From: Leptogorgia sarmentosa
Taxonomy: Eukaryota
NCBI GenBank assembly: GCA_964658305.1
Contig: OZ210885.1
Coordinates: forward strand, 13,950,001-14,014,000
Direction: 5' to 3'
DNA length: 64,000 nucleotides
Positions 2,855-59,500 of the stretch are shown piece by piece. A program made the translations under genes and the position numbers. Below the pieces are notes generated by a model that was not told the origin of the DNA, made no database searches, and saw only the letters and a program-made list of their open reading frames with translations. Position 1 is the first letter of the stretch; every line of letters starts with the position of its first letter.

Positions 2855-3244
2855 TACCCCCAATTTCATTATTGGGGGAAGATTTCTCACTCATTATCAG
2901 TTCAAAAAAATTCTAACAAATTATTCTTGACTTTACAGATAGCTAGATCCTCGCCGCCGCGAACCGGCATTTGGCAAGAGATACGTATATAATGACATCA
3001 TTATTCAGTGCGGATGACCGACGACGAACGAATTATGGTAAGCAGTCTAACACATTCATGTTATAATAGTCTTGGGTAGCTACTCGTTGGCCAACAAAGC
3101 TTAAGCAGCATCGCTGTTCGTGAGATTTACATACTTTGACTTTTTTTGTTAATTCGTATTGAATATGCGGGTCGAGAATTGTCGGAACGTGCAAACACGG
3201 TGCAGTCCGAGAGATCGATCGATCCATCTATCCACAGACAAACT

Positions 3245-3320
3245 CATCCCCATGCATTCGTTCCACAAGCATTCCTCGCGGTTGAAGCGTATAAAAGGTA
3301 ATCGTATGCGCCATGAAGTC
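3245..3320 (+). promoter_or_regulatory. Putative U1 snRNA proximal promoter (candidate PSE TCCACAAGCATTCCTCGC at about -59)
   Basis: Similar sequence recurs upstream of the other U1 starts; resembles TCACCATGCTTTTCTCGC at about -49 of U2. PSE assignment is inference. Confidence 0.4.
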
Positions 3321-3337
3321 ATACTTACCTGACGCGA
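3321..3337 (+). ncRNA. U1: U1 snRNA 5' fragment (nt 1-17)
   Basis: ATACTTACCTGACGCGA, containing the universal U1 5' splice-site-binding sequence ATACTTACCTG. Confidence 0.9.
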
Positions 3338-3965
3338 CCGTCTTTCTCGTGTCAGGTTCTTCACCCTTGCAGTAGAGGATCTATGCTCAGGAACACGGAC
3401 CTGTAACTCTGCTCGCAAGGTTTACAACTAGCTGCAGTTCTTTTTGCAGACACGCCTTCTTCTTTGTTCTGTCTTCCCGCTGTCTGGCCGGCCTACTAGG
3501 TGTCAAGGTAGCAGTTAGTCCATTCTTTTTTCTTTTGGACTGCTTTTCTTGTTCTTCGGAACTCGATTGGTAGTCCTTCCTGCTGTTTGTTGCGCGGTTA
3601 GCACGCGACACAGCATAGGGCCGCCCATTACAGTGTTTTTTATTGTTTTTATTAGGTAGTGGGTAATAGCTCTTCTTGTGTGTGACCTGTCGAGGAGTCT
3701 GTTTGGGGACTACTCAAAGGTCGGTGGTCTATTTAGGTTCTTTTTTTGCATTCGGTGTTGCGGATTGCGGTCGGTGGGCCAACACATCCGTTCCCTGCCT
3801 CTTCTTCTTTAAAAAGGACCTTTCTTTCCACTTAGTTTTTTTTTATGTGTGGGTCTTAATTTGTGTTACTTTTCAAGACTCAATTTTCTTTGCCACTCGG
3901 GTTTTACCTGTTTTGGCATTTTGTTTAGGATCAATTTGCTTTAGTTAATCATAATTTATAATAGT

Positions 3966-5703
3966 ATGTCTGCCCCAGCCGTGTTTAGTCAAGAGGACTT
4001 TGCGAAGTGGAACCAGACCACGTCTGTGTTTCTCTTGCCAAAGAAACTGGTTGGCAAATCCAAAGTCCCTCAGCTACGGGGAGAATTAGTTAAGGCCATT
4101 GGGGAGAAGAGTGTGTCTTGTGTTCAGGCCTTGCCTGGCATGAAATTTCGTGTGTGTTTTTCTTCTCCCTCCGTTCGAAGTCAGTTTGACATCAACGGTC
4201 TTAACTTTCGGGGCCTTACCATCACGCCCTTCCCGGCCTATGAGGAGGTCAAATCCGTTTTTGTGGATCGTGCACCTCCCCAGATGCCGGATCAATACAT
4301 CTACGACGCCCTGGGACCATACGGTCGTGTGATCGCGGTGAAGCACTTAACCATTAAGGGCTTCCCGTCTGTTAAATCTGGCACACGTATGGTGCAAATC
4401 GTCATCTCGAAGGCCATCCCAGCTGAAATTCGCGTGGTTGGATTTCAGCTGTCGTTCCGTTACCGCGGGCAGCCTCCAACTTGCTTTGCGTGCCAAGAGG
4501 TGGGGCACACTGCAAAGGCCTGCCCAAAGTCATCAAAACGGCATGGCCGTCCTCATCGAAATAGTGCTGGTAAACCACAGCCTACAGAGGCAGAGGATCG
4601 TAACAACCTGCCGGCTTCGTCCGGCCTTTCTGAATCGTCCTCTGGCTCTCGCACTGGAGACCTTCGCGAGAAATTAACTCCGAAGGCCACTAACTCGGCA
4701 GTGCCCAAGGCTACCCAGCAAGTCTAAACCTACAGGGGGTTCGGCCAACAATCATAACAAACCCTCCTCTTCTTCTTCTTCTCGCAAGGGTGACCTGCGT
4801 GAGAAGTTAACGAAGAAGACTAGCAAGCCAGAACTGCCATCTGTTCCGGGTGTAGCAGCTAAGGCCAATGCTCCTCAGGCTAAGGGGGTTAATCCCCTAT
4901 TAGCTTCGGCTAAGGAGAGCACCTTCTTGCCGGCCTCGTCCGGCCCTTCTAAATCGACCTCTTCTTCTCGCCCCAGAGACCTTCGGGAGAAGCTGAGGAA
5001 GAAGGTTCCCAAGGCCACCGAGCCGTCGGATGACACCACAGTGACACCTCCGACAGCGGAGCATTTGAAGTGCAAATCCTTCGATTTTGCGCTTCCAATA
5101 CCCTACGCAAGCCCACGTCCCCTTGGCAAGTCATCATCCAAGGCACCTAAGGGTGTTAGGGCCAACTCCACCAGGGATGCTCCTTTTTCCTCTTCCTCCT
5201 CGAGTAGTGAGGATGAAGAGGGTATAGTGTCCAAGAGGGTATGCCAGTCCGCTCCTGCTCCTTCGACTCCGACCAATGTTAGCGTGTGGCCAGGGTTCAC
5301 GAGCCCTCCTAGTCTAACTGCCACTCCTGAGGTCATGGAGGCCGAGGCTGACGTGGACAAATGTTTGAGTGGTGATACGGTCGTTGATCCGATCATCGCT
5401 CAAGAATCTGCGCCTGCTCTTGACTCTATTGAGCCAGTCGGATCCCCGGAGCGTATGGAGGATGCTCCAGTGCTTCCTCAGGCTGATGTGGACGATGACG
5501 ACAATGCTGCTTCGCAGGATCCTCCTGCAGTGGATGTCTCGTCCCAACAGTCTGAGTTATCCCTTGATCTTTTCGAGGCACTGGCATCGATCCATGAAGC
5601 CTCACTGTCTAGTCTCCGCGATGATGTCAGTGAGGTTGGTGCATCTTCCACATGCACGACTTTCAGTGACGACCGTATTAAACAAACCGCCCTGGTGGAT
5701 TGA
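3966..5703 (+). pseudogene. Family B ORF1 (RRM-like region + CCHC zinc knuckle), frameshifted
   Basis: CFACQEVGHTAKAC; split into ORFs 3966-4727 and 4927-5703; homologous to intact 32031-33836. Confidence 0.85.
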
Positions 5704-5724
5704 ACGACCGCCCTGGTGGAGTAA

Positions 5725-8700
5725 ACGACCGTATTAAACGAACCGCCCTGGTGGATTGGTTAAAATGTATGAAGGTAGATGTTGCATGTTTTCAAGAAAC
5801 GCATGCTCCTTCGCACGAATCCATTAGCAAGTGGTTCGCTAATTCTGGCTATCGAGTTGTCTCGGCGTCAGTTTCTAATAAGCGTTGTGGTACGGCCATT
5901 CTTATTAAAGATTGCCACAAAGTCAAGCAGGTGATTCGAGACGATGATGGACGGTTTGTCCAAGTCTTGGTTGATTTTGGGGAAGATCAGCTGAGTTTCG
6001 TCTCATTATATGCCCCAAATAAGAATCCGGCTCGCAACGCTTTTTTCTCCTCAATTCCTGGTTTAATTGATCTTACCAGGCCCACATTTGTTTGTGGTGA
6101 TTTTAATTCTGTTCTAGACGATGATCGGGATAGGCTTCGGCGTGCTTCTTACACTGGTGCTGCCTCTTCGCGCGCCCAGGAAAGTGGCCCAGCCTTGCAG
6201 GCCCTACTATCTCATACCCAGACATATCCGGTGTGGCGTACGTTACATCCCACGCAGACGGCTTATTCCTGGACCCATGGGTCCGGAACCTTTGGCTCGC
6301 GCATCGATACGGTCTGGGCCCCGACTTGTCTGGAACAGTCTATTAGGGAATGTGAAGATCATCCCTCCTTTTTATCCGATCATCAGTACTTGCTGGTCAA
6401 GTTCGACTTTTGATCGCATCGTTAGTGGTCCTGGAGTGTCGAAGTTTAATACTTCCCTCCTGGACGACGAGAATTATTGCTCGCTTGTCACTTCTTTTCG
6501 GTCCTTCTGGCAGGCCCATTATACGCCTGAGGCCTTTCCCTCCATTTTGGATTAGTGGGACCAAGGGAAGTTCTACCTTAGAGAAGTGACACGCACTTTT
6601 TGTCGGTCAAAGGAGCTGGACCGGCGAGAACATAAATCCTTCCTGACCAAGCAGATGCACAGACTGCAGCGTCTTTTCGAAGCAGGGGATACCTCTGCAT
6701 TTGCTAAGCTTTGCGAGGTTCAGGAAGAGCTCCGCGGCATTGCTTTGCATGAAGCGAGAGGGGCACAAGTTCGTGCTCGTTGTCAGTGGGCTGAGGAGGG
6801 GGAAACTTCCTCCTCCTTTTTTCTCAATTTAGCCACTAAGCGACATGCAAAGCAAGAGATGCACTCCATTCGAGACCCCGACACCGGTTCCGTGCGCCAC
6901 GACCCTTTTGAGATCTTGGACGTCTGGCGGCGGTATTACACCGAACTCTTTACTGCGGCACCCTGCGATACACCTGCTCAGGATGAGATGCTGTCAAAGC
7001 TGTCTCGCCGCCTTAGTAAGGAGGAACGTGCGTGTTGTGAGGGTCTTCTGTCTATAGAGGAGTGTTTTACTGCCCTGTCGGGTATGGCTTGGGGAAAGAC
7101 TCCGGGTTCCGATGGCTTTCCCATGGAGTTTTTCCTCAAGTTTTGGTCATGCCTTGGCGCTGATCTGGTTCGTGTCCTCAACGTTGCTTACGAGGCCGGC
7201 CAGCTTTCCACCTCTCAGCGTCGAGGTTTGATCATTGTGCTCTATAAAAAGAATGACCGCTTGGAGACAAAGAACTGGCGGCCGATTAGTCTGCTCAATG
7301 CAGACTACAAAATAGCTACTTGCGCCATTTCGGGTCGTCTCCTAGCCGTCATTGGGTCTGTTGTAGGGCCAGATCAAACGTGCGGTGTTCCAGGCCGTAC
7401 TCAGAGAACCTCTTTCTGATCTGTGATCTAATTGAGTATGCGGAGAATGAGGACATTCCCCTCGCTCTGCTCTCTTTGGATCAAGAAAAAGCATTTGATC
7501 GGGTCGATTGGGGTTTTTTTTTACGGACTCTGGACACCATGAATTTTGGTCCGGATTTCTGCCGATGGGTAAAGTTGTTTTACTCCGACGTAGAATCGGC
7601 GGTAGTCATCAATGGCTGGACCTCCTCCTTTTTTCGCCCCTCACGGGGTATGCGGCAAGGTTGTCCGCTTTCTCCTTTATTATACGTTCTATCGATTGAG
7701 GTGTTAGCAGCTAACATCCGCTCTGCCCCAGGTATAACTGGGGTTTTCTCCCTCAATCGCTGGAACAGTTTAAATGCTCTGGGTATGCCGATGATACGAC
7801 GATTGCGCCTACCACGGATGAATCCATAGAGGCCACCTTCGAGGTGTATTCTCAGTTTGAGAAAGCCTCAGGCGCTCGTTTGAATCGTGGCAAATCTAAG
7901 GGCATGTGGCTGGGCTCCTGGAAGCACCGTACCGATACCCCTCATGGTATCCAGTGGGTTAAAGAGCTCCCATTACTAGGTGCAACTTTCAGTGCCGCTG
8001 ACTATAGTCAGCAGACCTTCGAGCCAGCCGTTTCAAAATTGGAGAAGCGTTTGTCAGACTGGTCTGGACGCAAACTGTCCTTTCAGGGCAAGGCCACAAT
8101 TATCAACACCTTGGCCTTGTCCCAGATATGGCATTTGTGTCACGTCTTCCCTGTTCCGAAGTGGGCGGTTCAGAGAATACACAAGGCAGTTTGGAAGTTC
8201 TTCTGGTCTGGCAAGCGGGATCTTGTTGCCCGCAAAGTAGTCTGCCTTCCCAAATCCAAGGGTGGATTTGGAGTCATCGATTTCCAACTCAAGGCAGACG
8301 CTTTTGCCCTTCAATGGGTAAAACGATTCTTCGCCGAAGATCGCGGCAAATGGAAGGACTTTTTTATCCATTTTGTTTCTGCCTCACTTGGTTGCGAGCC
8401 TCGTGAGGCCCTTTTATCTTCCTTTTCCCAACGTCGTTTGAGAGCCTTGCCCGAGTTCTATCGTATGTCTTCCGGGTGTGGCAATTTCTCGACGGTGGTC
8501 TTACCGGCAATGACTTGTGCATTGCTGCCTCGTCTGCCTCTCCACTACCTGTGGATAACATATCCAGTAGGAATGTATACCAAATCAGCCAAAGCAATTT
8601 GAACAGTCAGCCACATTGTATTGCCAAATTCACGCCGCAGTATGGACCTCTACACTGTCCCCAAACTTGGAGTCAGCTCCATCTATGTCCATTTGACCGG

Positions 8701-9168
8701 CTTGTGATCGATCTAAACTGGCAAATAGCGCACGGCATTCTTTACACAGGCTCTCGCTTGGGAACCCGCTTTAACATGCCGAACATCGATACGCGCTGTT
8801 TCTGTCGAGCAGATGAAGAAACTTTAGAACATCTGTTCTTCGAATGTGAGCTGGCACGCCTTTTGGTGGCTTGGGTACATTACAATTTATGGCAGATATG
8901 TCCTAATGCCGCACCATTTACCGTCACGAAACTCCTGTTCGGCTTCTCGTCCGAACGACGGCGCATCATGCCCCCAATCATTGTGTGGATGCTCCAAGTG
9001 ATGAAACATACCATCTGGGTGGCGCGCTGTGATTTCCGTTTCCGAGGTAAGCGGCCAATCGCCTCCGATTGCCAAGCGAAAGCCATCGCTAAGATCAAGT
9101 TTGTCCTTGGTCTTTTTGGTCGTAGGTGCAAGCTCCCTGCTCAAGTGCGATCTTTTGCGTGCCAGTAG
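5725..9168 (+). pseudogene. Family B ORF2 (APE endonuclease + RT), disrupted
   Basis: QETH, GDFN, SDH, DQEKAFDRV, QGCPLSP spread over several frames; homologous to 33808-37353. Confidence 0.85.
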
Positions 9169-9239
9169 CACCTTCCTCGATTTAGGGAAATCCATTGCAC
9201 GCCCCCCAGTGGGGGTGGATTTGCCTATATCCAACATAA

Positions 9240-9268
9240 ACTTACCTGACGCGAGAGGCACCTTGATC
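9240..9268 (+). pseudogene. U1: U1 snRNA nt 3-31, remainder deleted
   Basis: ACTTACCTGACGCGAGAGGCACCTTGATC then jumps to spacer GGCATCCTAG (compare 37707-37940). Confidence 0.8.
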
Positions 9269-17845: not shown

Positions 17846-18340
17846 TGGTCATAACATTTTTATTTGCATGTAATGTGTCACCATGACGATTGGGCGGTCG
17901 CCTTTGCTGGTGGTACTGCTTGTATTGGATTGGTGTGTATGGTTTTGTCTCCCATGAAGTTCTGGTGGTCGCCTTTACTGGTTGTACTGCCTGTAACGGA
18001 TTGGGCTGTCTGTATGTTCAATTTTTGTCCTGTGGTTTACTCGGATTTCGTTCGGGTAGGCTGCACAGGTTTTCAATGTTTTAGATCTTGGGGTCGCTGC
18101 TCATGTTGCATCCGTCTAGCTCAACATCATACTCCGACCATTTCACCATCATAGGTTAGGGATCCCTGGGCGTGAAGGTGGGTAGCACCGGATCGTCCAG
18201 GCCATTCACGGTTGTTTCATGGCACGGGGGAGGGGTTCATGACCTCTGTCGAACCGCGTCACCTGTAGCGACCCCCCTGAAAGGGTTCAGGCTCCATTGC
18301 ACCGTCGGAGTCGAGAAGCCCGTCGTCGTACAATTCAAAA

Positions 18341-18961: not shown

Positions 18962-18978
18962 ATACTTACCTGACGCGA
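18962..18978 (+). ncRNA. U1: U1 snRNA 5' fragment (nt 1-17)
   Basis: ATACTTACCTGACGCGA after the conserved U1 upstream region. Confidence 0.9.
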
Positions 18979-21900
18979 CCGTCTTTGTCGTGTCAGGTTC
19001 TTCATACTTGCAGTAGAGGATCTATGCTCAGGAACACGGACCTGTAACTCTGCTCGCAAGGTTTACAACTAGCTGCAGTTCTTTTTGCAGACACGCCTTC
19101 TTCTTTGTTCTGTCTTCCCGCTGTCTGGCCGGCCTACTAGGTGTCAAGGTAGCAGTTAGTCCATTTTTTTTTTCTTTTGGACAGCTTTTCTTGTTCTTCG
19201 GAACTCGATTGGTAGTCTTTCCTGCTGTTTGTTGCGCGGTTAGTACGCGACACAGCATAGGGCCGCCCATTAGTGTTTTTTATTGTTTTTATTAGGTAGT
19301 GGGTAATAGCTCTTGTGTGTGACCTGTCGAGCAGTCTGTTTGGGGACAACTCAAAGGTCGGTGGTCTTTTTAGGTTCTTTTTTGCATTTGGTGTTGCGGA
19401 TTGAGGTCGGTGGACCAACATATCCGTTCCCCGGCTCTTTTTCTTTTTGAAGGACCTTTCCACTTAGTTTTTTTTTGTGGATTGTGCGCCTCCCCAGATG
19501 CCGGATCAATACCTCTACGACGCCTTGGCACCATACGGCCGTGTTATTTCGGTGAAGCATTTAACCATCAAGGGCTTCCCGACCGTTAAATCTGGCACAC
19601 GTATGGTGCAAATAGTCATTTCAAAGGCTATTCCAGCTGAAATTCGCATAGTTGGATTTCAGCTGTCGTTTCGTTACCGCGGGCAGCCTCCTAATTGCTT
19701 TGCGTGCCAAGAGGTGGAGCACACTGTAAAGGAGTGCCCAAAGTCATCGAAACAGAGGAATCAGGGCCGTCAAACTAGAAATAAAAATAGTACTGGTAAA
19801 TCTACGCCTACAGAGGCTGAGGATAGTAATAACTCGCCGGGTTTGTCCGGCCTTTTTAAATCGTCCTCTGCCTCTCGCACTGGAGACCTTCGCGAGAAGA
19901 TAACGCCAAAGGCTAGTAAGTCGGCAGTGCCCCAACCTACCAGTACAACTAAGCCGGCAAAAGGTTCGCTCAAGGACAAGTCATCCTCTTCTTCTTCTTC
20001 TTCTTGCACGGGTGACCTTCGGGAGAAGTTAACGAAGAAGAAGACTAGCGAGCCAGCACTGCCATCTGTTCCGGCTGTAGCGGCTAAGGAGAATGCTCCT
20101 CAGGCTAAGGGGGTTAATCCCCTATTAGTTTCGGCTAAGGAGAGCACCTTCCTGCCGGCTTCGTCTGGCCCTGCTACATCGACCTCTTCTTCTCGCCCTA
20201 GAGACCTTAGGGAGAAGCTGAGGAAGAAGGCTCCTAAGCCCACAGGTCAGTCTGAGCAGACTACTTTGACGCCTCCGACAGCTGAACATCTGAAGAGCAA
20301 ATCCTTTGATTTTGCACTGTTGCTTTCTCAGTGTCGCCTTGGCAAGTCACCCAGGCATGATCCTTTTTCTTCTTCCTCCTCCAGAAGTGAGGATGAAGCT
20401 GGTAAAGTTGGCAAGAGAGTATGCACGTCTGCTCCTGCGCCTCCGAGTCCATCCAACGTTAGCGTGTGGCCAGGGTTCCCGAGCCCTCCGACTAAAACTG
20501 CCACTCCTGAGGCCATGGAGGCGGAGGCTGACGTGGACAAGTGCTTGAGTGGTGAACGGTAGTGGACCCTATCGTCGCTCACGAATCTGCACCTGCTCTT
20601 GCCTCTACTTAGCCAGCCGGATCCCTGGAGCGTATGGATGATGCTCCTGTGCCTCCTCAGGCGGATGTGGACGATGATCATGCTGCTTCGCAGGATCCTC
20701 CTGCAGTGGATGTCTCGCCCCAACAGTCTGAGTCATCCCTCGATCTTTTCCAGGCACTAGCAGCCATCCATGAAGACTCACTGACTCGTCTTCGTGACGA
20801 TGTCAGTGAGGTTGGTGCATCTTCAACATGCACGACTTTTAGTGATCAGCTTCATGCTGATCAACTCGAGGAGGTCCTTCTTGGTGAGACGCCCACTTCT
20901 GGGACATCAGATTCCGATAGCGAGTCTGATGTCCATTAACATCAACGGTCTTAACGACTGTGTTAAACGAACCGCCCTGGTGGATTGTTTAAAGTGTATG
21001 AAGGTGGATGTAGCATGTTTGCAAGAAACGCATGCTCCTTCGCACGAATCCATTAGGAAGTGGTTCGCTAACTCTGGCTTTCGAGTTGTCTCGTCGTCAG
21101 TGTCAAATAAGCGTTGTGGGACGGCTATTCTTATTAAAGATTGCCACAAGGTCAAACAGGTGATCCGAGACGATGATGGACGGTTTGTCCAAGTCTTGGT
21201 TGATTTTGGGGAAGATCAGCTAAGTTTCGTCTCATTATATGCCCCAAATAAGAATCCGGCTTGTAACGCTTTTTTCGCTTCAATTCCTGGTTTAATTGAT
21301 CTTACCAGGCCCACATTTGTTTGTGGTGATTTTAATTCTGTTCTAGATGATGATCGGCATAGGCTTCGGCGTGCTTCTTACACTGGTGCTGCCTCTTCGC
21401 GCGCCCAGGAAAGTGGCCCGGCTTTGCAGGCCCTACTATCTCATACCCAGACATATCCGGTGTGGCGTACATTACATCGCACGCAGACGGCTTATTCCTG
21501 GACCCATGGGTCTGGAACAGTCTATTAGGGAATGTGAATATCATCCCTCCTTTTTATCCGATCATCAGTACTTGCTGGTCAAGTTCGATTTTGGTGATCG
21601 CATCATTAGTGGTCCTGGAGTGTGGAAGTTTAATACTTCCCTCCTGGACGACGAAACCTATTGCTCGCTTGTCACTTCTTTTTGGTCCTTCTGGCAGGTC
21701 CATTATACACCTGAGGCCTTTCCCTCCATTTTGGATTGGTGGGACCAAGGGAAGTTCTACCTTAGAGAAGTGACATGCACTTTTAGTCGGTCAAAGGAGC
21801 TGGACCGGCGTGAACATAAATCGTTCCTGACCAAGCAAATGCACAGATTGCAACGTCTTTTTGAAGCAGGGGATACCTCTGCATTCGCTAAGCTTTGCGA

Positions 21901-30260: not shown

Positions 30261-30759
30261 TTTACTGGTTGTACTGTCGTCGCCTTCTGGACGCTTTTGT
30301 TTTTTGTCTCGTTGTCTTGGACTGGACAGCACATTTGTTTTTATGTTTAATGTTGATTTGTATTGTCCTCCCTTGAAGATCTGGCGGTCGCCTTTATTGG
30401 TTGTACTGCCTGTATCGGATTGGGTTGTTTGTTTGTTTCAATTTTTGTGGTTCGCTTGGATTTGTTCCGAGCGGGTTGCACAGGTGTTGATCTAGGGGTT
30501 GCTGCTCATGTTGTAATCGCCTAGCTTAACATCATCATCTGACCATTTCACCATCATTAGGTTAGGGATCCCTGGGCGTGAAGGTGGATAGCACCAGATC
30601 GTTGAGGCCACTCACGGTTGCATCATGGCACGGGGAGGGGCTCACGACCCCTGTCGATCCGCGTCACCTGTAGTGAATCCCCTGGGTGCGGCGATTTGTT
30701 TGGATCCAGGCTCCATTGCACCGTCGGAGACGACAAGCCCATCGTCGTTCAACTCAAAA

Positions 30760-31376: not shown

Positions 31377-31393
31377 ATACTTACCTGACGCAA
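31377..31393 (+). ncRNA. U1: U1 snRNA 5' fragment (nt 1-17)
   Basis: ATACTTACCTGACGCAA. Confidence 0.9.
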
Positions 31394-32030
31394 CCGTCTT
31401 TGTCGTGTCAGGTTCTTCACCCTTGCAGTAGAGGATCTATGCTCAGGAACACGGACCTGTAACTCTGCTCGCAAGGTTTACTACTAGCTGCAGTTCTTTT
31501 TTGCAGACACGCCTTTTTCTTTGTTCTGTCTTCCCGCTGTCTGGCCGGCCTACTAGGTGTCAAGGTAGCAGTTAGTCCTTTCTTTTTCTCTTGGGCTGCT
31601 TCTCTTGTTCTTCGGAACTCGAGTGGTAGCCTTTCCTGCTGTTTGTTGCGCGGTTAGCACGCGACACAGCATAGGGCCGCCCATTACAGTGTTTTTACTT
31701 GTTTATTAGGTAGTGGGTAATAGCTCTTCTTGTGTGTGACCTGTCGAGGAGTCTGTTTGGGGACTACTCAAAGGTCGGTGGTCTTTTTAGGTTCTTTTTT
31801 GCATTCGGTGTTGCGTATTGAGGTCGGTGGACCAACATATCCGTTCCCTGGCTCTTCTTCTTTAAAAAGGACCTTTCCACTTAGTTTTTTGATCCTTAGT
31901 GTGTGTGGGTCTTAATTTGTAGTACTTTTTAAGGCTCAATTTTCTTTGCCACTCGGGTCTTACCTGTTTTGGCAGTATTGATTAGGATCAATTTGGTTTG
32001 TTTAAGTAATTAATAGTAATTTATTATAGT

Positions 32031-33836
32031 ATGTCTGTCCCAACTGTATTTAGTCAGGAGGACTTTGCGAAATGGAACCAGACCACGTCTGTGTTTCTCT
32101 TGCCAAAGAAACTGGTTGGCAAATCCAAAGTCCCCCAGTTGCGGGCAGAACTAGTTAAGGCCATTGGGGAGAAGAGTGTGACTTGTGTTCAGGCTTTGCC
32201 TGGCATGAAATTTCGTGTGTGCTTTTCTTCTCCCGCCGTTCGAAGTAAGTTTGACATCAACGGCCTTAACTTTAGGGGCCTTACCATCACGCCCTTCCCG
32301 GCCTATGAGGAGGTCAAATCCGTTTTTGTGGATCGTGCGCCTCCCCAGATGCCGGACCAATATATTTATGACGCCTTGGCACCATACGGACGTGTTATCT
32401 CGGTGAAGCATTTAACCATCAAGGGCTTCCCGACCGTTCAATCTGGCACACGTATGGTGCAAATAGTTATCGCAAAGGCCATCCCAGCTGAAATTCGCGT
32501 GGTTGGATTTCAGCTGTCGTTCCGTTACCGCGGGCAGCCTCCAACTTGCTTTGCGTGCCAAGAGGTGGGGCACACTGCAAAGGACTGCCCAAAGTCATCA
32601 AAACGGCATGGCCGTAATCAACACCGAAATAGTGCTGGTAAACCACAGCCTACAGAGGCGGAGGACCGTAACAACCGGCCGGCTACGTCCGGCCTTTCTA
32701 AATCGTCCTCTGGCTCTCGCACTGGAGACCTTCGCGAGAAATTAACTCCGCAGGCCACTAACTCGGCAGTGCCCAAGGCCACCAGCAAGTCTAAGCCTAC
32801 AGAGGGTACGGCCAAAGACACAAACAAACCCTCCTCTTCTTCTTCTTCTCGCAAGGGTGACCTGCGTGAGAGGTTAACGAAGAAGACTAGCAAGCCGGTA
32901 CTGCCATCTGTTCCGGCTGTAGCGGATAAGGCCAAGGCTCCTCAGGCCAAGGGGGTTAATCCCCTATTAGTTTCGGCTAAGGAGAGCACCTTCTTGCCGG
33001 CCTCGTCCGGCCCTTCTAAATCGACCTCTTCTTCTCGCCCTAGAGACCTTCGGGAGAAGCTGAGGAAGAAGGTTCCCAAGGCCACCGAGCCGTCGGATGA
33101 CACCACAGTGACGCCTCCGACAGCGGAGCATTTGAAGCGCAAATCCTTTTATTTTGCGCTTCCAATACCCTACGCAAGCCCACGTCCCCTTGGCAAGTCA
33201 TCATCCAAGGCACCTAAGGGTGTTAGGGCCAACTCCACCAGGGATGCTCCTTTTTCCTCTTCCTCCTCGAGTAGTGAGGATGAAGAGGGTATCGTGTCCA
33301 AGAGGGTTTGCCAGTCCGCTCCTGCTCCTTCGACTCCGACCAATGTTAGTGTGTGGCCAGGGTTCACGAGCCCTTCTAGTCCAACTGCCACTCCAGAGGC
33401 CATGGAGGCAGAGGCTGACGTGGACAAATGTTTGAGCGGTGATACGGTCGTTGATCCGCTCATCGCTCAAGAATCTGCGCCTGCTCTTGACTCTGCTGAG
33501 CCAGTCGGATCCTCGGAGCATATGGATGATGCTCCCGTGCCTCCTCAGGCTGATGTGGAAGATGACGATAATGCTGCTTCGCAGGATCCTCCTGCAGTGG
33601 ATATCTTGTCTCAGCAGTCTGAGTCATCCCTCGATCTCTTCGAGGCACTGGCCGCCATTCATGAAGACTCACTGTCTCGTCTTCGCGATGATGTCAGTGA
33701 GGTTGGTGCATCGTCCACATGCACGACCTTCAGTGATCAGCTTCGTGCTGATCAACTCGAGGAGCTCCTTATTGGTGAGCTGCCCACATCTGGGACATCA
33801 GATTCTGATGGCGAGTCTGTTGTCCATCAATATTAA
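32031..33836 (+). CDS. Family B ORF1 (601 aa): RRM-like region, CCHC knuckle, long S/P/K-rich tail
   Basis: YRGQPPTCFACQEVGHTAKDC; uninterrupted. Confidence 0.9.
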   Translation: MSVPTVFSQEDFAKWNQTTSVFLLPKKLVGKSKVPQLRAELVKAIGEKSVTCVQALPGMKFRVCFSSPAVRSKFDINGLNFRGLTITPFPAYEEVKSVFVDRAPPQMPDQYIYDALAPYGRVISVKHLTIKGFPTVQSGTRMVQIVIAKAIPAEIRVVGFQLSFRYRGQPPTCFACQEVGHTAKDCPKSSKRHGRNQHRNSAGKPQPTEAEDRNNRPATSGLSKSSSGSRTGDLREKLTPQATNSAVPKATSKSKPTEGTAKDTNKPSSSSSSRKGDLRERLTKKTSKPVLPSVPAVADKAKAPQAKGVNPLLVSAKESTFLPASSGPSKSTSSSRPRDLREKLRKKVPKATEPSDDTTVTPPTAEHLKRKSFYFALPIPYASPRPLGKSSSKAPKGVRANSTRDAPFSSSSSSSEDEEGIVSKRVCQSAPAPSTPTNVSVWPGFTSPSSPTATPEAMEAEADVDKCLSGDTVVDPLIAQESAPALDSAEPVGSSEHMDDAPVPPQADVEDDDNAASQDPPAVDILSQQSESSLDLFEALAAIHEDSLSRLRDDVSEVGASSTCTTFSDQLRADQLEELLIGELPTSGTSDSDGESVVHQY

Positions 33837-36800
33837 TGGTCTCAACGACCGCATTAAACGAACCGCCCTGGTGGATTGGTTAAAATGTATGAAGGTGGAT
33901 GTTGCATGTTTGCAAGAAACACATGCTCCTTCGCACGAATCCATTAGGAAGTGGTTCGCTAACTCTGGCTTTCGAGTTGTCTCGTCGTCAGTGTCAAATA
34001 AGCGTTGTGGGACGGCTATTCTTATTAAAGATTGCCATAAGATCAAGCAGGTGATCCGAGACGATGATGGACGGTTTGTCCAAGTCTTGGTTGATTTTGG
34101 GGAAGATCAGCTAAGTTTCGTCTCATTATATGCCCCAAATAAGAATCCGGCTCGTAACGCTTTTTTCTCCTCCATTCCTGGTTTAATCGACCTTACCAGG
34201 CCCACATTTGTTTGTGGTGATTTTAATTCTGTTCTAGACGATGATCGGGATAGGCTTCGGCGTGCTTCTTACACTGGTGCTGCCTCTTTGCGCGCCCAGG
34301 AAAGTGGCCCGGCCTTGCAGGCCCTACTATCTCATACCCAGACATATCCGGTGTGGCGTACGTTACATCCCACGCAGACGGCTTATTCCTGGACCCATGG
34401 GTCCGGAACCTTTGGCTCGCGCATCGATATGGTCTGGGCCCCGACTTGTCTGGAACAGTCTATTAGGGAATGTGAATATCATCCCTCCTTTTTATCCGAT
34501 CATCAGTACTTGCTGGTCAAGTTCGATTTTGGTGATCGTATCGTTAGTGGTCCTGGAGTGTGGAAGTTTAACACTTCCCTCCTGGACGACGAGAATTATT
34601 GCACCCTTGTCACTTCTTTTTGGTCCTTCTGGCAGGCCCATTATACACCTGAGGCCTTTCCCTCCATTTTGGATTGGTGGGACCAAGGGAAGTTCTACCT
34701 TAGAGAAGTGACACGCACTTTTTGTCGGTCAAAGGAGCTGGACCGGCGAGAACATAAAGCCTTCCTGACCAAGCAGATGCACAGACTGCAGCGTCTTTTC
34801 GAAGCAGGGGATGCCTCTGCATTCGCTAAGCTTTGCGAGGTACAGGAAGAGCTCCGAGGCATTGCTTTGCATGAAGCGAGAGGGGCACAAGTTCGTGCTC
34901 GTTGTCAGTGGGCTGAGGAGGGGGAAACTTCCTCCTCCTTTTTTCTCAATTTGGCCACTAAGCGACATGCAAAGCAAGAGATGCACTCCATTCGAGACCC
35001 CGACACCGGTACCGTGCGCCACGACCCTTTTGAGATCTTGGACGTCTGGCGGCGGTATTACACCGAACTCTTTACTGCGGCACCCTGCGATACATCTGCT
35101 CAGGATGAGATGCTGTCAAAGCTGTCTCGCCGCCTTAGTAGGGAGGAACGTGCGTGTTGTGAGGGTCTTCTGTCTATAGAGGAGTGTTTCACTGCCCTGT
35201 CGGGTATGGCTAGGGGAAAGACTCCGGGTTCCGATGGCTTTCCCATGGAGTTTTTCCTCAAGTTTTGGTCATGCCTTGGCGCTGATCTGGTTCGCGTCCT
35301 CAACGTTGCTTACGAGGCCGGCCAGCTTTCCACCTCTCAGCGTCGAGGTCTGATCATAGTATTGTACAAGAAGAATGACCGCTTGGAGACAAAGAACTGG
35401 CGGCCGATTAGTCTGCTCAATGCAGACTATAAAATAGCTGCTCGAGCTATTTCGGGTCGTCTCTTAGCTGTCATTGCCTCTGTTGTGGGGCCAGATCAAA
35501 CGTGCGGTGTTCCAGGCCGTACCATCTCCGAGAACCTCTTTCTGATCCGCGATCTAATTGAGTATGCGGAGCACGAGGACATTCCCCTCGCTCTGCTCTC
35601 TTTGGATCAAGAAAAAGCATTTGATCGGGTCGATTGGGGCTTTCTCTTGCGGACTCTGGACACCATGAATTTTGGTCCGGATTTCTGCCGATGGGTAAAG
35701 TTGTTTTACTCGGACGTAGAATCGGCCGTAGTCATCAATGGCTGGACCTCCTCCTTTTTTCGCCCTTCACGGGGTGTGCGGCAAGGTTGTCCGCTTTCTC
35801 CTTTATTATACGTTCTATCGATTGAGGTGTTAGCAGCTAACATCCGCTCTGCCCCAGGTATAACTGGGGTTTTTCTCCCTCAATCGCTGGAACAGTTTAA
35901 ATGCTCTGGGTATGCCGATGATACGACGATTGCGCCTACCACGGATGAATCCATAGAGGCCACCTTCGAGGTGTATTCTCAGTTTGAGAAAGCCTCGGGT
36001 GCTCGTTTGAATCGTGGCAAATCGAAGGGCATGTGGCTGGGCTCCTGGAAGCACCGTACCGATACCCCTCATGGTATCCAGTGGGTTAAAGAGCTCCCAT
36101 TACTCGGTGCAACTTTCAGTGCCGCTGACTATAGTCAGCAGACCTTCGAGCCAGCCGTTTCAAAATTGGAGAAGCGTTTGTCAGACTGGTCTGGACGCAA
36201 ACTGTCCTTTCAGGGCAAGGCCACAATTATCAACACCTTGGCCTTGTCCCAGATATGGCATTTGTGTCACATCTTCCCTGTTCCGAAGTGGGCGGTTCAG
36301 AGAATTCACAAGGCCGTTTGGAAGTTCTTCTGGTCTGGCAAGCGGGATCTTGTTGCCCGCAAAGTCGTCTGCCTTCCCAAATCCAAGGGTGGATTTGGAG
36401 TTATCGACTTCCAACTGAAGGCAGATGCTTTTGCGCTTCAATGGGTAAAACGTTTCTTCGCCGAAGACCGCGGCAAATGGAAGGACTTCTTTATCCATTT
36501 TATTTCTACCTCACTTGGTTGCGAGCCTCGTGAGGCACTTTTAACCTCTTTTTCCCAACGTCGTTTGAGAGCCTTGCCCGAGTTCTACCGTATCATCTTC
36601 CGGGTGTGGCAATCTCTCGACGGTGGTCTTACCGGCAATGACTTGTGCATTGCTGCCTCGTCTGCCTCTCCACTACCTGTGGACAACATATCCAGTAGGA
36701 ATGTATACCAAATCAGCCAAAGCAATTTGAACAGTCAGCCACATTGTATTGCCAAATTCACGCCGCAGTATGGACCTCTACACTGGCCCCAAACTTGGAG

Positions 36801-37353
36801 TCAGCTTCATCTATGTCCATATGACCGGCTCGTGATCGACCTGAATTGGCAAATAGCGCACGGCATTCTATACACGGGCTCTCGCTTGGAAACCCGCTTT
36901 AACATGCCCAACATCGATACGCGCTGTTTCTGTCGAGCAGATGAAGAAACGTTAGAACATCTGTTCTTCGAATGTGAGCTGGCCCGCCTTTTGGTGGCTT
37001 GGGTACATTACAATTTATGGCAGATATGTCCTACTGCCGCACCATTTACCGTCACGGAACTCCTGTTCGGCTTCTCGTCTGAGCGACGGCGCATCGTGCC
37101 CCCAATCATCGTGTGGATGCTCCACGTGATGAAACATACCATCTGGGTGGCGCGCTGTGATTTCCGTTTCCGAGGTAAGCGGCCAATCGCCTCCGATTGC
37201 CAAGCGAAAGCCATCGCTAAAATCAAGTTTGTCCTTGGTCTTTTTGGCCGTAGGTGCAGGCTCCCTGCTCAAGTGCGATCTTTTGAGCGGGATTGGCTCG
37301 CTCGGGGTATTTTAGGACATTTCGAGGGGGAGGAGCTGGTCTTCTCCTTTTAG
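33808..37353 (+). CDS. Family B ORF2: APE endonuclease - reverse transcriptase - CCHC
   Basis: MASLLSININGL, LQETH, GDFN, SDH, KTPGSDG, DQEKAFDRV, QGCPLSP, YADD, CFC...ETLEHLFFEC; likely ATG at 33808, overlapping ORF1 by 29 nt. Confidence 0.93.
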   Translation: MASLLSININGLNDRIKRTALVDWLKCMKVDVACLQETHAPSHESIRKWFANSGFRVVSSSVSNKRCGTAILIKDCHKIKQVIRDDDGRFVQVLVDFGEDQLSFVSLYAPNKNPARNAFFSSIPGLIDLTRPTFVCGDFNSVLDDDRDRLRRASYTGAASLRAQESGPALQALLSHTQTYPVWRTLHPTQTAYSWTHGSGTFGSRIDMVWAPTCLEQSIRECEYHPSFLSDHQYLLVKFDFGDRIVSGPGVWKFNTSLLDDENYCTLVTSFWSFWQAHYTPEAFPSILDWWDQGKFYLREVTRTFCRSKELDRREHKAFLTKQMHRLQRLFEAGDASAFAKLCEVQEELRGIALHEARGAQVRARCQWAEEGETSSSFFLNLATKRHAKQEMHSIRDPDTGTVRHDPFEILDVWRRYYTELFTAAPCDTSAQDEMLSKLSRRLSREERACCEGLLSIEECFTALSGMARGKTPGSDGFPMEFFLKFWSCLGADLVRVLNVAYEAGQLSTSQRRGLIIVLYKKNDRLETKNWRPISLLNADYKIAARAISGRLLAVIASVVGPDQTCGVPGRTISENLFLIRDLIEYAEHEDIPLALLSLDQEKAFDRVDWGFLLRTLDTMNFGPDFCRWVKLFYSDVESAVVINGWTSSFFRPSRGVRQGCPLSPLLYVLSIEVLAANIRSAPGITGVFLPQSLEQFKCSGYADDTTIAPTTDESIEATFEVYSQFEKASGARLNRGKSKGMWLGSWKHRTDTPHGIQWVKELPLLGATFSAADYSQQTFEPAVSKLEKRLSDWSGRKLSFQGKATIINTLALSQIWHLCHIFPVPKWAVQRIHKAVWKFFWSGKRDLVARKVVCLPKSKGGFGVIDFQLKADAFALQWVKRFFAEDRGKWKDFFIHFISTSLGCEPREALLTSFSQRRLRALPEFYRIIFRVWQSLDGGLTGNDLCIAASSASPLPVDNISSRNVYQISQSNLNSQPHCIAKFTPQYGPLHWPQTWSQLHLCPYDRLVIDLNWQIAHGILYTGSRLETRFNMPNIDTRCFCRADEETLEHLFFECELARLLVAWVHYNLWQICPTAAPFTVTELLFGFSSERRRIVPPIIVWMLHVMKHTIWVARCDFRFRGKRPIASDCQAKAIAKIKFVLGLFGRRCRLPAQVRSFERDWLARGILGHFEGEELVFSF

Positions 37354-37706
37354 TCTTTTAGGTTTTTTAATCTTTCTTTCTTCCTCTGCCGTTCCGTGAA
37401 GGGGGGTCGCCTTCGTTGGTTGTACTGCCCAGATCGGTTCGGTAGGGTCTTTTCTCTTTTTAAATCCCCGTTGCTGCCTGTATCAGGCATGCATCGGTCC
37501 ATGTACCGTCCTAGTATGTGTAGTTTTTAATATAGAGTTAAATGCACTAATCGAGGCGTCAGAAAAATAAATATTCTCGGGGTGCATTTAATGAGGAGGT
37601 AGGGATCGTCCCCCTAGTCGTTTGCGTGCCGGTAGCACCCTCCTCGATTTAGGGAAATCCATTGCACGCCCCCCAGTGGGGGTGGATTTGCCTATATCCA
37701 ACATAA

Positions 37707-37867
37707 ACTTACCTGACACGAGAGGCACCTTGATCAACTAGGAGGTCCTCTCAGGACGAGGCCCTTTCATTGCACTTCGACTGGGTTGACTCCTGTGATT
37801 ACCCCTAACGTGAGTAACTCGAGCTCATAATTTCTGGTAGTGGGGACCTGGGTTCACGCTCGTCCCT
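37707..37867 (+). ncRNA. U1: U1 snRNA 3' portion (nt 3 to ~163)
   Basis: ACTTACCTG, SL I loop TGATCAAC, SL II loop CATTGCACTTC, Sm site ATAATTTCTGG, SL IV GGGGACCTGGGTTCACGCTCGTCCC. Confidence 0.93.
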
Positions 37868-38358
37868 TTTATCCTCATCTTATTATTGTGATTTCCCATA
37901 CTCAAAACTGATATTATAAGTGTCGTCGGGCATCCTAGTTTATTGAAGCAACAACAATTCTATGTGTTCTTCACACTGCAGGCCGCGTGTTTCACGAACA
38001 CACGCAACTCGATACTACATCGCGGTCATTCGAAATCTAATATATAACCATGCAATCAATATTCGATTACTCACACCTTGTTGTAGGCACGTAACATGGA
38101 ATGAATACATGAGTCAATCGATACGCGTTGCCAACCGATAATGCATTTTATACTAGACTTATGTTAAACAACCATTTCCAAGTTTCCACTCGTCATTTCT
38201 CCAACCGAAGCGCAACCGGACGCGCTTCGTTCGTGCCATAAGGTTTGCAGCTCATTTCGCTTGCAATTTCGCGGCCGCTAATGGTGGCGCAAAGGAGGAC
38301 CGCATTTTTTCACCTTGCTTTTCTTGCTTAAAAGATGGCGTGGAACGGCGAAGAAGGC

Positions 38359-51615: not shown

Positions 51616-51891
51616 CACGAATTATACTTGCATGGTAAGAAGCAGCCTGACACATTCATGTTATAATAGTCTTGGGTAGCTCGCTGGCCAACAAAGCAGC
51701 ATCACTGTTCATGAGATTTACATTCCTGGATTTTTTTCTAAACTTGTATTGAATATGGTCGAGAATTGTTGGAACATGCAAACATGGTGCAGTCCGAGAG
51801 ATTGACAGACAAACTCATCCCCATGTATTCGTTTCACAAGAATTCCTCGCGGTTGCAGCGTATAAAAGGTAATCATATGTGCCATGAAGTC

Positions 51892-51973
51892 ATACTTAAG
51901 GTACCACCCCTAAGGTGGGTAACTCGAGCATATAATTTCTGGTAGTGGGGACCTGTGTTCGCGCTCGTCCCCT
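51892..51973 (+). pseudogene. U1: U1 snRNA pseudogene with internal deletion
   Basis: U1 upstream region + ATACTTA joined to SL III, Sm site TAATTTCTGG and SL IV. Confidence 0.85.
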
Positions 51974-52053
51974 TAATCCTTATCCTCATCTTATTATTCC
52001 CATTTAAATACTCAAAACTGACTCAACATCCTAGTATGTTGAAGGGACAACAA

Positions 52054-52619
52054 CAAATCAAATCAAATCAAATCGCTTTATATCTACAGTATCGCTTTAA
52101 ATCTACAGTATTTACACATATATAATAAGAATAAGAGTGACAAGTGACAATAATACAAATCAGTTACAATTAACGTTATCTATACAATGACAATTAACAC
52201 TTAGACTTTACAGTTACTAAGACACTACATACTAGCTACTGATTTACAAGATTGTCGTGCGGGAGACCGTTCATACAGAAAATAAATTGTCAATTTCTCT
52301 CTGAAATTGATTAAGAGAGCCTATTGCTCGAATATTTTGAGGTAACTCATTCCACAACAATGCTCCGCTTTAGCTAAAACATTGTTTGCCATAGTTCGTA
52401 CGCGGTTTTGGCACAAATAAACTGTTTTCTGAGTTTCTCAAATTGTATCCTGTGCTGCGGGATTCAAACAATTCGCGGAGATAATATGAAGTTAAATCAT
52501 TAATTGTTTTAAACATCAATATAGCTTTGTGCTTTTTTCTTCGTATTAGAAGATTATCCCATCCCAGTCTACCAAACAGTTCGCTGGAGCTAGTATCATG
52601 TCGAGATTTGGTGATGACC
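52054..52619 (-). mobile_element. 3' fragment of L2/CR1-group LINE
   Basis: LGWDNL...YNLRNS...PKPRTNYGK on minus strand; (ATTTG)n tail near 52054-52074. Confidence 0.75.
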
Positions 52620-56527: not shown

Positions 56528-56544
56528 ATACTTACCTGACGCGA
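56528..56544 (+). ncRNA. U1: U1 snRNA 5' fragment (nt 1-17)
   Basis: ATACTTACCTGACGCGA. Confidence 0.9.
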
Positions 56545-59500
56545 CGTCTTTGTCGTGTCAGGTTCTTCACCCTTGCAGTAGAGGATCTATGCTCAGGAAC
56601 ACGGACCTGTAAGTCTGCACGCAAGGTTTACAACCAGCTGCAGTTCTTTTTGCAGAACCGCCTTCTTCTTTATTCTGTCTTCCCACTGTTTGGCCGGCCT
56701 ACTTGGATAGGTGTCAAGGTAGCAGTTTGTCCATTCTTTTTCTTTTGGACTGCTTTTCTTGTTCTTCGGAACTCGATTGGTAGTCTTTCCTGCTGTTTGT
56801 TGCGCGGTTAGCACGCGACACAGCATAGGGCCGTCCATTACAGTGTTTTTATTGTTTTTATTAGGTAGTGGGTACTAGCTCTTCTTGTGTGTGACCTGTC
56901 GAGGAGTCTGTTTGGGGACAACTCAAAGGTTGGTGGTCTTTTAGGTTATTTTTTGCTTTCGGTGTTGCGGATTGAGGTCGGTGGGCCAACATATCCGTTC
57001 CCTGGCTCTTGTTCTTTCAAGGACCTTTCTTTCCACTTAGTTTTTTGATCCTTAGTGTGTGTGGGTCTTAATTTGTAGTACTTTTTAAGGCTCAATTTTT
57101 TGTCACTCGGGTTTTACCTGTTTTGGCAGTGTGTTAGGATCAATTTGGTTTAGTTAACGCTTAAATAGTAATTTATAATAGTATGTCTGCCCCAGCTGTA
57201 TTTAGTCAGGAGGACTTTGCGAAGTGGAACCAGACCATGTCTGTGTTTCTCTTGCCAAAGAAACTAGTTGGCAAATCCAAAGTCCCTCAGCTGCAGGGAA
57301 GAATTAGTTAAGGCCATTGGGGAGAAGCGTGTGTCTTGTGTTCAGGCCTTGCCTGGCATGAAATTTCGTGTTTGTTTTTCTTCTCCCTCCATTCGAAGTC
57401 AGTTTGACATCAACGGCCTTAACTTTCGGGTCCTTACCATCACGCCCTTCCCGGCCTATGAGGAGGTCAAATCCGAGTTTGTCGATCGTACGCCCCCTCA
57501 GATGATATTTATGACGCCTTGGCACCATATGGTCGTGTTATCTCGGTGAAGCACTTAACCATCAAGGGCTTCCCGTCTGTTAAATCTGGCACACATATGG
57601 TGCCAATAGTAATTTCGAAGGTCATCCCAGCTGAAATCCGCATGTTTGGATTTCAGCTGTCGTTTCGTTACCGTGGGCAGCCTCCAACTTGCTTTGCGTG
57701 CCAGGAGGTGGGGCACACTGCAAAGGACTGCTCAAAGTCTTCAAAACGACGTAACCCAGCCAAAAATAAAAATAATGCTGGTAAACCTAAGCCTACAGCG
57801 GCTAAGGCAAAGGAATGCAATAACCAGCCGGCTTTGTCCAGTAAAACTGCATCCTCCTCTTCTTCTCACACTGGAGATCTACGTGAGAAGTTAGCTAAGA
57901 AGGCTACTACACCAGCAGTGCCGTCTGTTCAGGCTGTAGAGGGTAAAACCAGTAAATCTAAGCCTACAGTGGCTTCGGCCAAGAATGGCAATAACCAGCA
58001 AGCTTCCTCTTCTCGCAAGGGAGACCTTGAGAATAATAAAGAAAGCTAGAAGGACAGCTGTGCCGTCTGGTCAGGCTGGCAAGACTAATTCTACTGCATC
58101 TCAGGCTAAGGTGGTAAAGGATCTCTTAGTTTCGGCTGAGGAGAGCACCTACCTGCCAGGGATGTTCCTTTATCCTCCTCCTCCTTGAGTAGTGAGGATG
58201 AGGAAGTTATAGTGTGCAAGAGGGTATGCCAGTCCGCTCCTGCTCCTCCTCCGAGTCCAATGTTAGCGTGTGGTCGGAGTTCCCGAGCCCTCCTCAAACT
58301 GCCACTCCTGAGGGGATGGAGGCAGAGGCTGACGTTGACAAGTGTTTGAGTGGTGATACGGTAGTTGATCCTATCGTCGCTCATGAATCTGCGCCTGCTC
58401 TTGCCTCTACTGAGCCAGTCGGATCCCCGGAGCGTATGGATGATGCTCCCGTGCATCCTCAGGCTGCTGTGGACGATGATAATGCTGCTTTGCAGGACCC
58501 TCAGTCTGAGTCATCTGTGCCAGGACGCAACAGTCTGAGTCATCCCTTGATCTTTTCGAGGCACTGGCATCGATCCATGAAGCCTCACTGTCTGGTCTCA
58601 GCGATGATGTCAGCGAGGTTGGTGCATCTTCGACATGCACGATGTGCATGTGATCAGCTTCGTGCTGATCAACTCGAGGCGCTCCTTCTTGGTGAGCTGG
58701 CCACATCTGGGACATCAGATTCCGATGGCGAGTCTGTTGTCCATTAACATCAGTGGTCTTAACCACCGTATTAAACAAACCACCCTGGTGGATTGGTTAA
58801 AGTGTATGAAGGTGGATGTAGCATGTTTGCAAGAAATGCATGCTCCGCATGAATCATTAGGAAGTGGTTTGCTAATTCTGGCTTTCGAGTTGTCTCGTCG
58901 TCAGTTTCAAATAAACGTTGTGGTACGGCTATTCTTATTAAAGATTGTCACAAGGTTAAACATGTGATTTGAGACGATGATGGGCGGTTTGTCCAAGTCT
59001 TGGTTGATTTTGGGGAAGATCAGCTAAGTTTCGTCTCACTATATGCCCCAAATAAGAATCTGTTGCCGTATCTGCCTCTCCACTTCCTGTGGATAACGAA
59101 CTTAGTCAAACCAATTTAAATAGTCAGCCACATTGTATTGCCAAATTCACGCCTCAGTATGGACCTCTACACTGGCCCCAAACTTGGAGTCAGCTCCATC
59201 CATGTCCATTTGACCAGCTGGTGATCGAGCTGAACTGGCAAATAGCGCATGGCATTCTCTACACGGGCTCCAGCTTGGGAACCTGCTTAAACATGCCCAA
59301 CATGTGCAAGTGCATAACTCCCGAATGTGACCTGGCCCGTCTTTTGGTGGCATGGGTACATTAAAATTTATGGCAGATATGTCCTACTGCCGCACCATTT
59401 ACCGTCACGGAACTCTTGTTCGGCTTCTCGTCCGAAAGGCGCCGCATCATGATTCCCATACCATACCATCTGGGTGGCTCGCTGTGATTTCTGTTTCCGT

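Follow-up and report, generated by a model that had tools for sequence, protein, structure and literature searches.

Why should a retrotransposon that interrupts U1 snRNA genes begin with an antisense copy of the very U1 end behind which it sits? The question is posed by a U2/U1 snRNA gene array of an animal, whose genes are split by LINEs and which makes up the window, i.e., the whole 64,000-nucleotide stretch analysed here (the family B features given below lie on its + strand). Rfam models recognise in the window three bodies of U2, a single U1 body, and, near 51870, a damaged U1. Two families of elements alternate along the array: family A elements lie behind the U2 5′ ends at 12406, 25172, and 38359, and family B elements behind the U1 5′ ends at 3321, 18962, 31377, and 56528 (copies 1, 2, 3, and 5). 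The U2–U1 spacer (2860..3320 in front of copy 1) is repeated before each U1 start and, as in snRNA genes generally, is presumed to contain the U1 upstream promoter. All four B junctions are preceded by U1 upstream sequence, with 445 nt of it in three cases and 30 nt in copy 5.

Some further features of the array concern family A and the damaged gene. Family A targets U2 near nt 23–28 with a duplication of 4–6 nt (12406, 25172, 38359; 2691, 18344, 30763), a site that differs from the nt 35–37 site of other U2-inserted loci, and the family falls into two subfamilies in the tree. In the damaged U1 copy (51870–51973), a few bases stand in place of nt 7–96. Behind it come roughly 4.5 kb of other sequence (52021–56497) with an RT fragment, and 30 nt separate the end of this stretch from the U1 start of copy 5.

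Element B is a two-ORF LINE of the Tx1 type with an APE-type endonuclease and an RT, the clade label being taken from anatomy and from general features of the group, as the tree includes no named Tx1 references. Copy 1 is full length with broken frames (3338..9239). It is preceded by U1 nt 1–17 (3321..3337), the 5′ remnant of the interrupted gene, of which nt 3–17 constitute the upstream copy of the target duplication; behind the element, U1 resumes at nt 3 (9240..9268, duplication at 9240–9254), in a remnant shortened by a deletion. The coding regions are best seen in copy 3, where ORF1 (32031..33836, in a frame spanning 32010–33836) encodes a CCHC zinc knuckle matched by PF00098, and ORF2 (33808..37353) is open and encodes an APE-type endonuclease, an RT, and a zf-RVT-like end, with PF03372 and PF00078 recognised in its 1305-residue frame (33436–37353). 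A separate ORF1 with a CCHC zinc knuckle is a feature of Tx1-clade non-LTR retrotransposons, and B combines this knuckle with the two other marks of the clade, APE plus RT in ORF2 and a target preference with duplication. Copy 3 is followed by U1 nt 3–164 (37707..37868), complete with stem-loops and Sm site, whose duplicated part (37707–37721) bears a G14A change. Insertion has thus occurred after U1 nt 17 at 4/4 5′ junctions, and U1 restarts at nt 3 at 2/2 3′ junctions (copies 1 and 3), so that nt 3–17 are duplicated (15 bp). The nearest named protein relative comes from the octocoral Paramuricea clavata (P0021, 59%), which makes a cnidarian host probable. Uninserted U1 runs past the junction point in DNA runs X4 and X8, and the depth of the junction contig against the U1 spacer (23.5 vs about 500 in X4, 19.8 vs 506 in X6) roughly indicates that B occupies a few percent of U1 genes, contig depth not being equal to copy number.

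The antisense sequence itself is as originally described: U1 nt 7–17 (ACCTGACGCGA, 3327–3337) are followed, after the first 9 nt of B (3338..3346), which form the predicted hairpin loop, by the arm TCGTGTCAGGT (3347–3357), giving 11 bp with one G–U pair. The arm was assessed by complementarity, folding, and shuffles. A second leader hairpin, of 13 bp with an inner stem, is predicted at 3365..3421 (140-nt fold, z = −3.9). The original prediction held that the motif is kept at the four 5′ junctions and extends to 12 bp in copies 2 and 5. The arm is indeed identical in all of them (starting at 3347, 18988, 31403, and 56553; 11/11 columns), and the 12-bp stem is found in copy 2 (18962..18998, arm at 18988–18998), while copy 5 (56528..56563, arm at 56553–56563) folds into 13 bp after a 1-nt deletion in the loop. 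The junction of copy 3 (31377..31413, arm at 31403–31413) departs from the pattern, since its U1 nt 16 is an A, which breaks one pair, so it is the arm and not the stem that is intact in all four; G is the main letter at this position in the DNA runs. Three of the four copies have a G before the arm, which makes 12 bp the usual stem.

Such stems are seldom reached by shuffled sequences, as the observed length was attained in 0/300 shuffles for copy 1 (11 bp), 1/300 for copy 2, 8/300 for copy 3 (9 bp), and 3/300 for copy 5. Likewise, the longest stem was 6 bp among chance matches to U1 nt 1–15 in viral contigs (78 matches, 76 of them usable). In the window, 11-bp stems containing no more than one G–U pair start at 35 positions, five of them B junctions, which indicates that hairpins of this size are not rare and that what is rare is a start inside the 17-nt U1 remnant. 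On the other hand, the invariance of the arm across the four copies is by itself no sign of selection, because the next 100 columns are 91/100 invariant, and these copies are close kin. The arm is also unchanged in the main junction contig of three DNA runs, among the differences listed.

A further link, to a variant of the target duplication at 37711–37721, was dropped. The arm is the exact reverse complement of this variant, as had been noted, but the match is probably a meaningless coincidence produced by parallel CpG decay: intact U1 has a G at nt 14 (window positions 3334 and 9251; locus L099), and the U1 copy at 37705 differs from an intact relative by three CpG-type transitions, G14A among them.

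U1 nt 1–11 pair with 5′ splice sites, and nt 12–16 are paired within mature U1. The arm of B covers just nt 7–11 of the splice-site-binding end, and nt 1–6 are left free. The hexamer GGTRAG is absent from B, in which the best splice-site-like match stands at the chance level (6 vs 5.8). At the 5′ end of B, no ribozyme was matched by Rfam (window, E 0.1), and none was matched at 20 relative loci (gathering score) or at eight loci (E 1). A descriptor of the HDV-like fold, run without a positive control, gave 0 matches in 3/3 B copies, in which no hammerhead core was found, and yielded scattered, non-matching occurrences in 4/17 other leaders. A Pol II snRNA start requires no cleavage. As a separate observation, a hammerhead-like core (CTGATGA, stem, GAAA) was recognised by eye 3′ of the element end in L047 (about 4640–4700), with no Rfam match at the gathering score.

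Whether the arm means more than a peculiarity of four related copies depends on other elements. ORF2 searches provided the best 80 of at least 390 metagenome loci and 18 loci from genome bins, to which 48 further stretches were added; the metagenome and bin loci presumably represent animal host DNA. Several genome bins labelled as prokaryotic contain animal snRNA arrays with LINEs (L082–L089, L091, L097, and L098 in G001; L081 in G002; L092, L093, and L095 in G003), presumably through host contamination. In a quick, midpoint-rooted tree of 110 rows without named references, B falls in a clade of 21 rows, its sister is a clade of 44 rows, and family A lies outside both. The only B-clade DNA among the matches listed is L081 (57%), which lacks both ends, and no close relative of B with its 5′ end was obtained from the loci searched. 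No ORF2 relative came from viral contigs, and G002 gave one ORF1 match, cut at the contig end. The U1 start pattern was absent from 178 other genomes of the family of G002, and U1-start matches in G002–G005 mostly represented either intact U1 genes or matches by chance.

In the 44-row clade, insertion in U1 at nt 12–19, with U1 restarting at nt 3, is found in many members. Within this clade, one member is found at U5 (L037), and another lies among tRNA-Gln genes arranged in an array (L091). Joins to U5 snRNA genes, and to a tRNA-Gln gene at its front, are seen at L037:5230, L005:2566, and L091:9604, and they imply that targets change within the group. L093 and L095, which belong to a distant branch (29–30% identity), interrupt U1 further in and with no duplication, U1 resuming near nt 36–41, and U1 targeting may have arisen twice. 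In these two loci (L093:682 and 7270, L095:70 and 6010) the break lies in U1 stem-loop 1, and about 10–15 nt of the target have apparently been lost. L138 is a 5′-truncated copy joined at U1 nt 12, with no leader at all, and L015 holds U1 nt 1–21 within a 15-nt duplication at a non-U1 site, which indicates that elements of this kind can carry U1 5′ sequence along. Elements of about 1.0–1.3 kb, probably non-autonomous, occupy the same U1 site (L088:1915-2956, L083:9958-11237, and L137, minus strand, 10469), and bear both an anti-U1 arm and an AUUGCAC end. Two other leader motifs, neither with an Rfam match, were observed among the relatives. The first, TGGCCGRAGGCCCTA, is predicted to form a small hairpin directly behind the U1 remnant in a 26-row clade (L009:512-528 and 12 others). 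The second, which runs from GTGACCC to CCTGGGGTAAG and may form a pseudoknot, is shared by a subclade whose members have different targets (L091:3945-3995, L082:55-120, L015, L043, L046, L137).

The comparison of leaders comprises 22 distinct U1-junction leaders, one from a B copy and 21 from other elements; it leaves out duplicates, non-junction matches, the leaderless L138, the heads at L015 and L087, and the later-found L229 and L230, both of which have GGTRAG. This hexamer, predicted to pair with U1 nt 4–9, lies at +31 to +83 in 16/22 U1-junction leaders, and is found in 0/18 U2-junction leaders within 85 nt. An apparent absence of the arm from most relatives, obtained with 70-nt windows, was rejected as an artefact of window size, the arm being located at +57 to +83. 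U1 nt 3–11 are predicted to be paired with the leader above shuffles in 20/22 cases (mean 6.2 vs 4.0 of 9; L078, 6.3 vs 4.5), seven of the 22 being individually significant (p < 0.05), and L043, L046, and L088:2957 remain at or near the shuffle level. When the same U1 head is placed on the leaders of U2 elements, pairing exceeds shuffles in 4/18 (2.7 vs 3.4).

Thirteen leaders from one clade, belonging to elements with 56–91% ORF2 identity, could be aligned. The six pairs to U1 nt 4–9 hold in 13/13, every change in the arm keeping a G–U pair, and the arm stays constant while the columns before it diverge. No pair has changed on both sides, U1 being invariant and hence unable to covary. In 17 leaders with GGTRRG, among which L088:2957 was anchored on another motif, predicted cis pairing fell from 0.84 to 0.55 when the enclosed stretch alone was shuffled and both head and arm were left unchanged, with 15/17 above shuffle, in a sample whose rows are not independent, 13/17 coming from one clade. 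By itself, the enclosed stretch is no stabler than shuffles (mean z −0.4, 9/17 below zero).

The register of the pairing varies, from nt 7–17 in B to nt 3–10 in L137:7237 and nt 4–9 plus 14–18 in the short element of L088, L083, and L137. Several of these registers reach nt 12–18, which are paired in mature U1, and this points to pairing in cis. An arm similar in form to that of B is found in 1/21 other U1-junction leaders (L093), where it may stand in for the 3′ strand that U1 stem-loop 1 lacks there and is consequently not counted as covariation. Both L093 and L095 leave U1 nt 1–7 free in the predicted ensemble.

These observations can be accommodated in a model in which the arm masks a borrowed RNA end. 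B RNA, likely produced from the U1 promoter, would start at U1 +1 and run through the element, so that it would begin with U1 nt 1–17, onto which the arm is predicted to fold back. The uniform B junctions and the carried head of L015 are compatible with a start at U1 +1. The U1 piece may stay on the RNA because the cDNA copied from it could pair with the target upstream of the insertion, so that 5′ junctions come out uniform, as has been proposed for R2 with 28S sequence. If capped and exposing its U1 5′ end, such an RNA would pair with splice sites or meet factors that act on the U1 5′ end, at a cost to the element or the host, and leaders able to pair with that end would be retained. The arm of B would probably have originated as a fold-back copy of the junction, and the sister clade would use GGTRAG instead.

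The masking model explains why U1-inserted, and not U2-inserted, elements have arms, and the recurrence of a fold-back onto the U1 end in different registers favours selected masking over a landing pad, a fossil, or a decoy for the primer. Its limits include the read-through RNA, which would carry a second, unmasked copy of nt 3–11 at its 3′ end. On balance, that leaders pairing with the borrowed U1 end have been kept by selection is given an even chance of being right. The original prediction, according to which the hairpin of B hides nt 7–11 so that the chimera cannot act as a rogue U1, is sustained in part, by the relatives and not by the covariation it suggested: anti-U1 arms recur at U1 and not at U2 junctions, but the B form of the arm recurs just once, in the uncounted case of L093, and nt 1–6 stay free.

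Among the alternatives, the one that survives best holds that the arms are 5′ splice-site-like landing pads for the U1 snRNP in trans, cis pairing being a side effect. The pad would prevent the early termination of a 6-kb transcript driven by an snRNA promoter, or would open an intron in the leader. The common arm has indeed the splice-site consensus, with GTRAGT in 12/22 U1 leaders vs 1.4 expected, and its variants fit pairing in trans equally well. Further in, U2-junction leaders are mildly enriched too (6/18 within 150 nt vs 2.0 expected), L227 has GTRAGT directly at a U2 junction, and relatives outside U1 (L015, L091) have GGTAAG within a motif conserved in their leaders. Nevertheless, the arm of B offers a splice site no more than CAG/GT, at chance level, and pairs with nt 12–17, while the arm site is predicted to be buried in cis (mean 0.84). 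U2-inserted elements would share the promoter problem, yet they have no arm within 85 nt, and GT..AG ends were found in 0/5 joints over the leader of B in DNA contigs. A landing pad is thus considered fairly unlikely as the main function of the arms.

A second alternative takes the arm of B as a neutral fossil, in which an ancestral insertion copied the junction backwards by fold-back or template switching and the result was inherited without function; any junction behind a U1 promoter could, according to this proposal, enter the template. The arm is a near-exact inverted copy that starts at the junction and differs by one CpG-type transition, it is conserved no better than the next 100 nt, and R2 has been described to propagate accidents of its junction (in the portion of PMC3774820 available). 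Inheritance without function does not account, however, for arms that recur in other registers and up to 83 nt away, invariant amid diverging columns and absent beside U2 junctions, and it is judged unlikely as the whole explanation. A fold-back fossil may well be the origin of B's arm without explaining the recurrence, and such an origin is plausible and compatible with later selection.

A decoy role has also been contemplated, in which the RT primer is kept by the arm from the duplicated target at its 5′ copy, as the nicked bottom strand would end in the complement of U1 nt 3–17 and could anneal to the 5′ end of the RNA rather than to the 3′ read-through. The arms resemble the predicted primer end, that of B covering 11 of the 15 duplicated nt, and the duplication-less L093 and L095 are the ones that leave nt 1–7 free. 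Against shielding, in U2 elements whose 5′ remnant extends past the start of the 3′ flank, that stretch is paired above shuffle in 0/4 cases (p < 0.05), and abundant free U1 snRNA would be expected to compete alike, beyond the reach of any mask in cis. This role is decidedly unlikely. Finally, the earlier suggestion of an RNA arm that anneals to the nicked top strand in the course of 5′ integration, nt 7–17 of this strand being complementary to the arm, found no support and is very improbable, since extension of such a duplex would carry the loop and the U1 head, copied in reverse, into the junction, which is seen at 0/4 junctions, and the commoner arms target nt 4–9, away from the top-strand end.

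Masking thus remains the preferred reading for the 5′ end, and the 3′ end of the same elements bears a second feature reminiscent of U1. The sequence CATTGCAC is present at six places on the + strand of the window: one lies in U1 stem-loop 2, and the others precede the 3′ ends of B (two) and A (three) by 40–50 nt. In copy 1 of B, AUUGCAC (9194..9200) is predicted to lie in an unpaired 7-nt bulge closed by a C–G pair, 40 nt before the 3′ end; the candidate U1A-type site of copy 3 is at 37661..37667, and those of family A are at 2643–2649, 18296–18302, and 30715–30721. Both B ends are predicted to present the unpaired heptamer with C–G closure that characterises U1A sites. The DNA motif ATTGCAC is exact in 22/28 3′ ends and has one mismatch in six, with anchors picked after viewing the ends, against a background of five occurrences in 330,391 nt of ORF2. 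In 14 hand-picked hairpins, a C–G pair closes 13, and the next pair is A–T in six, G–C in six, and C–G in two. Across the clade, the loop is found 20–50 nt before the 3′ tail on varying stems, sometimes in two copies (L019:4436, L091:9576, L098:10490). It is also found in relatives outside snRNA genes, which makes it a trait of the clade and not of the U1 target, and no AUUGCAC end was seen in the U2-inserted elements of other branches, which have a poly(A) tail, in several cases after AATAAA.

U1A is described to contact AUUGCAC and the closing C–G pair in either a hairpin or an internal-loop form (PMC2203988, as far as its available text goes), and the known sites, in U1 stem-loop 2 and in the internal loop of the U1A pre-mRNA (PMC2203988), share with B the AUUGCAC loop closed by C–G. 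Unlike them, the putative site described here, recognised from its sequence, is located in the 3′ end of a retrotransposon, and no paper listed in the literature searches linked U1A or AUUGCAC to retrotransposons. A broader picture, possible but distinctly tentative, would be that of an animal LINE clade that parasitises U1 genes, in which a repeatedly re-invented 5′ arm disables the U1 end and a 3′ U1A loop either controls the 3′ end or returns the RNA to snRNA loci.

If the masking model is true, it exemplifies a retrotransposon that makes use of the promoter of an snRNA gene and inactivates the functional RNA end acquired along with it. The arm, the U1 remnant, and the U1A loop constitute a short set of RNA parts with which to address two questions on snRNA-targeted elements, namely the way in which they are transcribed, and a possible role of host snRNP proteins in locating the target. 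An element of this kind, a LINE landing at a single site of a multicopy gene, is also relevant to targeted insertion.

Among known systems, specific insertion in U1 genes is shared by B with the Dada-U1 elements, which differ in being DNA transposons with 6–7 bp duplications and no RNA intermediate (PMC4640811, PMC8869645, according to the text available). In 2015, Dada DNA transposons were the sole transposons listed for U1 genes in the accessible part of that survey (PMC4640811). No U1-targeting LINE was found in a literature search whose scope lay outside Repbase, Kojima and Fujiwara 2004, subscription papers, and supplements, where such families could be held, and B is probably an undescribed U1-targeting variant of the target-specific LINEs. 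The closest of these is Keno, a U2 snRNA gene-specific group of the Tx1 clade reported from vertebrates, lancelet, and cnidarians (PMC4494074, PMC4640811, in the sections available). Keno resembles B as an APE-type LINE whose insertion site in a multicopy snRNA gene is fixed, but it resides in U2, an insertion not seen for B, which duplicates nt 3–17 of U1. The U2-inserted elements that resume at U2 nt 35–37 belong to other branches of the tree, have no anti-U1 arm near the junction, and may represent Keno.

Tx1 elements that start with U1-derived sequence, as B does, are also represented by Tx1-Mar and SINEU. The crocodilian Tx1-Mar elements have U1-derived heads, thought to have been gained by template switching, and insert in Mariner transposons, and dependence on flanking promoters has been discussed for SINEU (PMC4494074, in its available text, where a search for the term "secondary structure" returned no mention). 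In contrast, B is found in real U1 genes behind their spacer and with a target duplication, and none of its four junctions has a U1 head moved to a non-U1 target. The R2 elements, which have an HDV-like ribozyme and another type of endonuclease, differ from B in both respects, no ribozyme having been found at the B 5′ end. R2 is nevertheless co-transcribed from its host gene, and the upstream 28S sequence pairs with element RNA in the P1 stem, which has been proposed to give uniform 5′ junctions (PMC3774820, in the part available). Host sequence at the 5′ end of the RNA that pairs with element sequence is precisely the arrangement modelled here for B.
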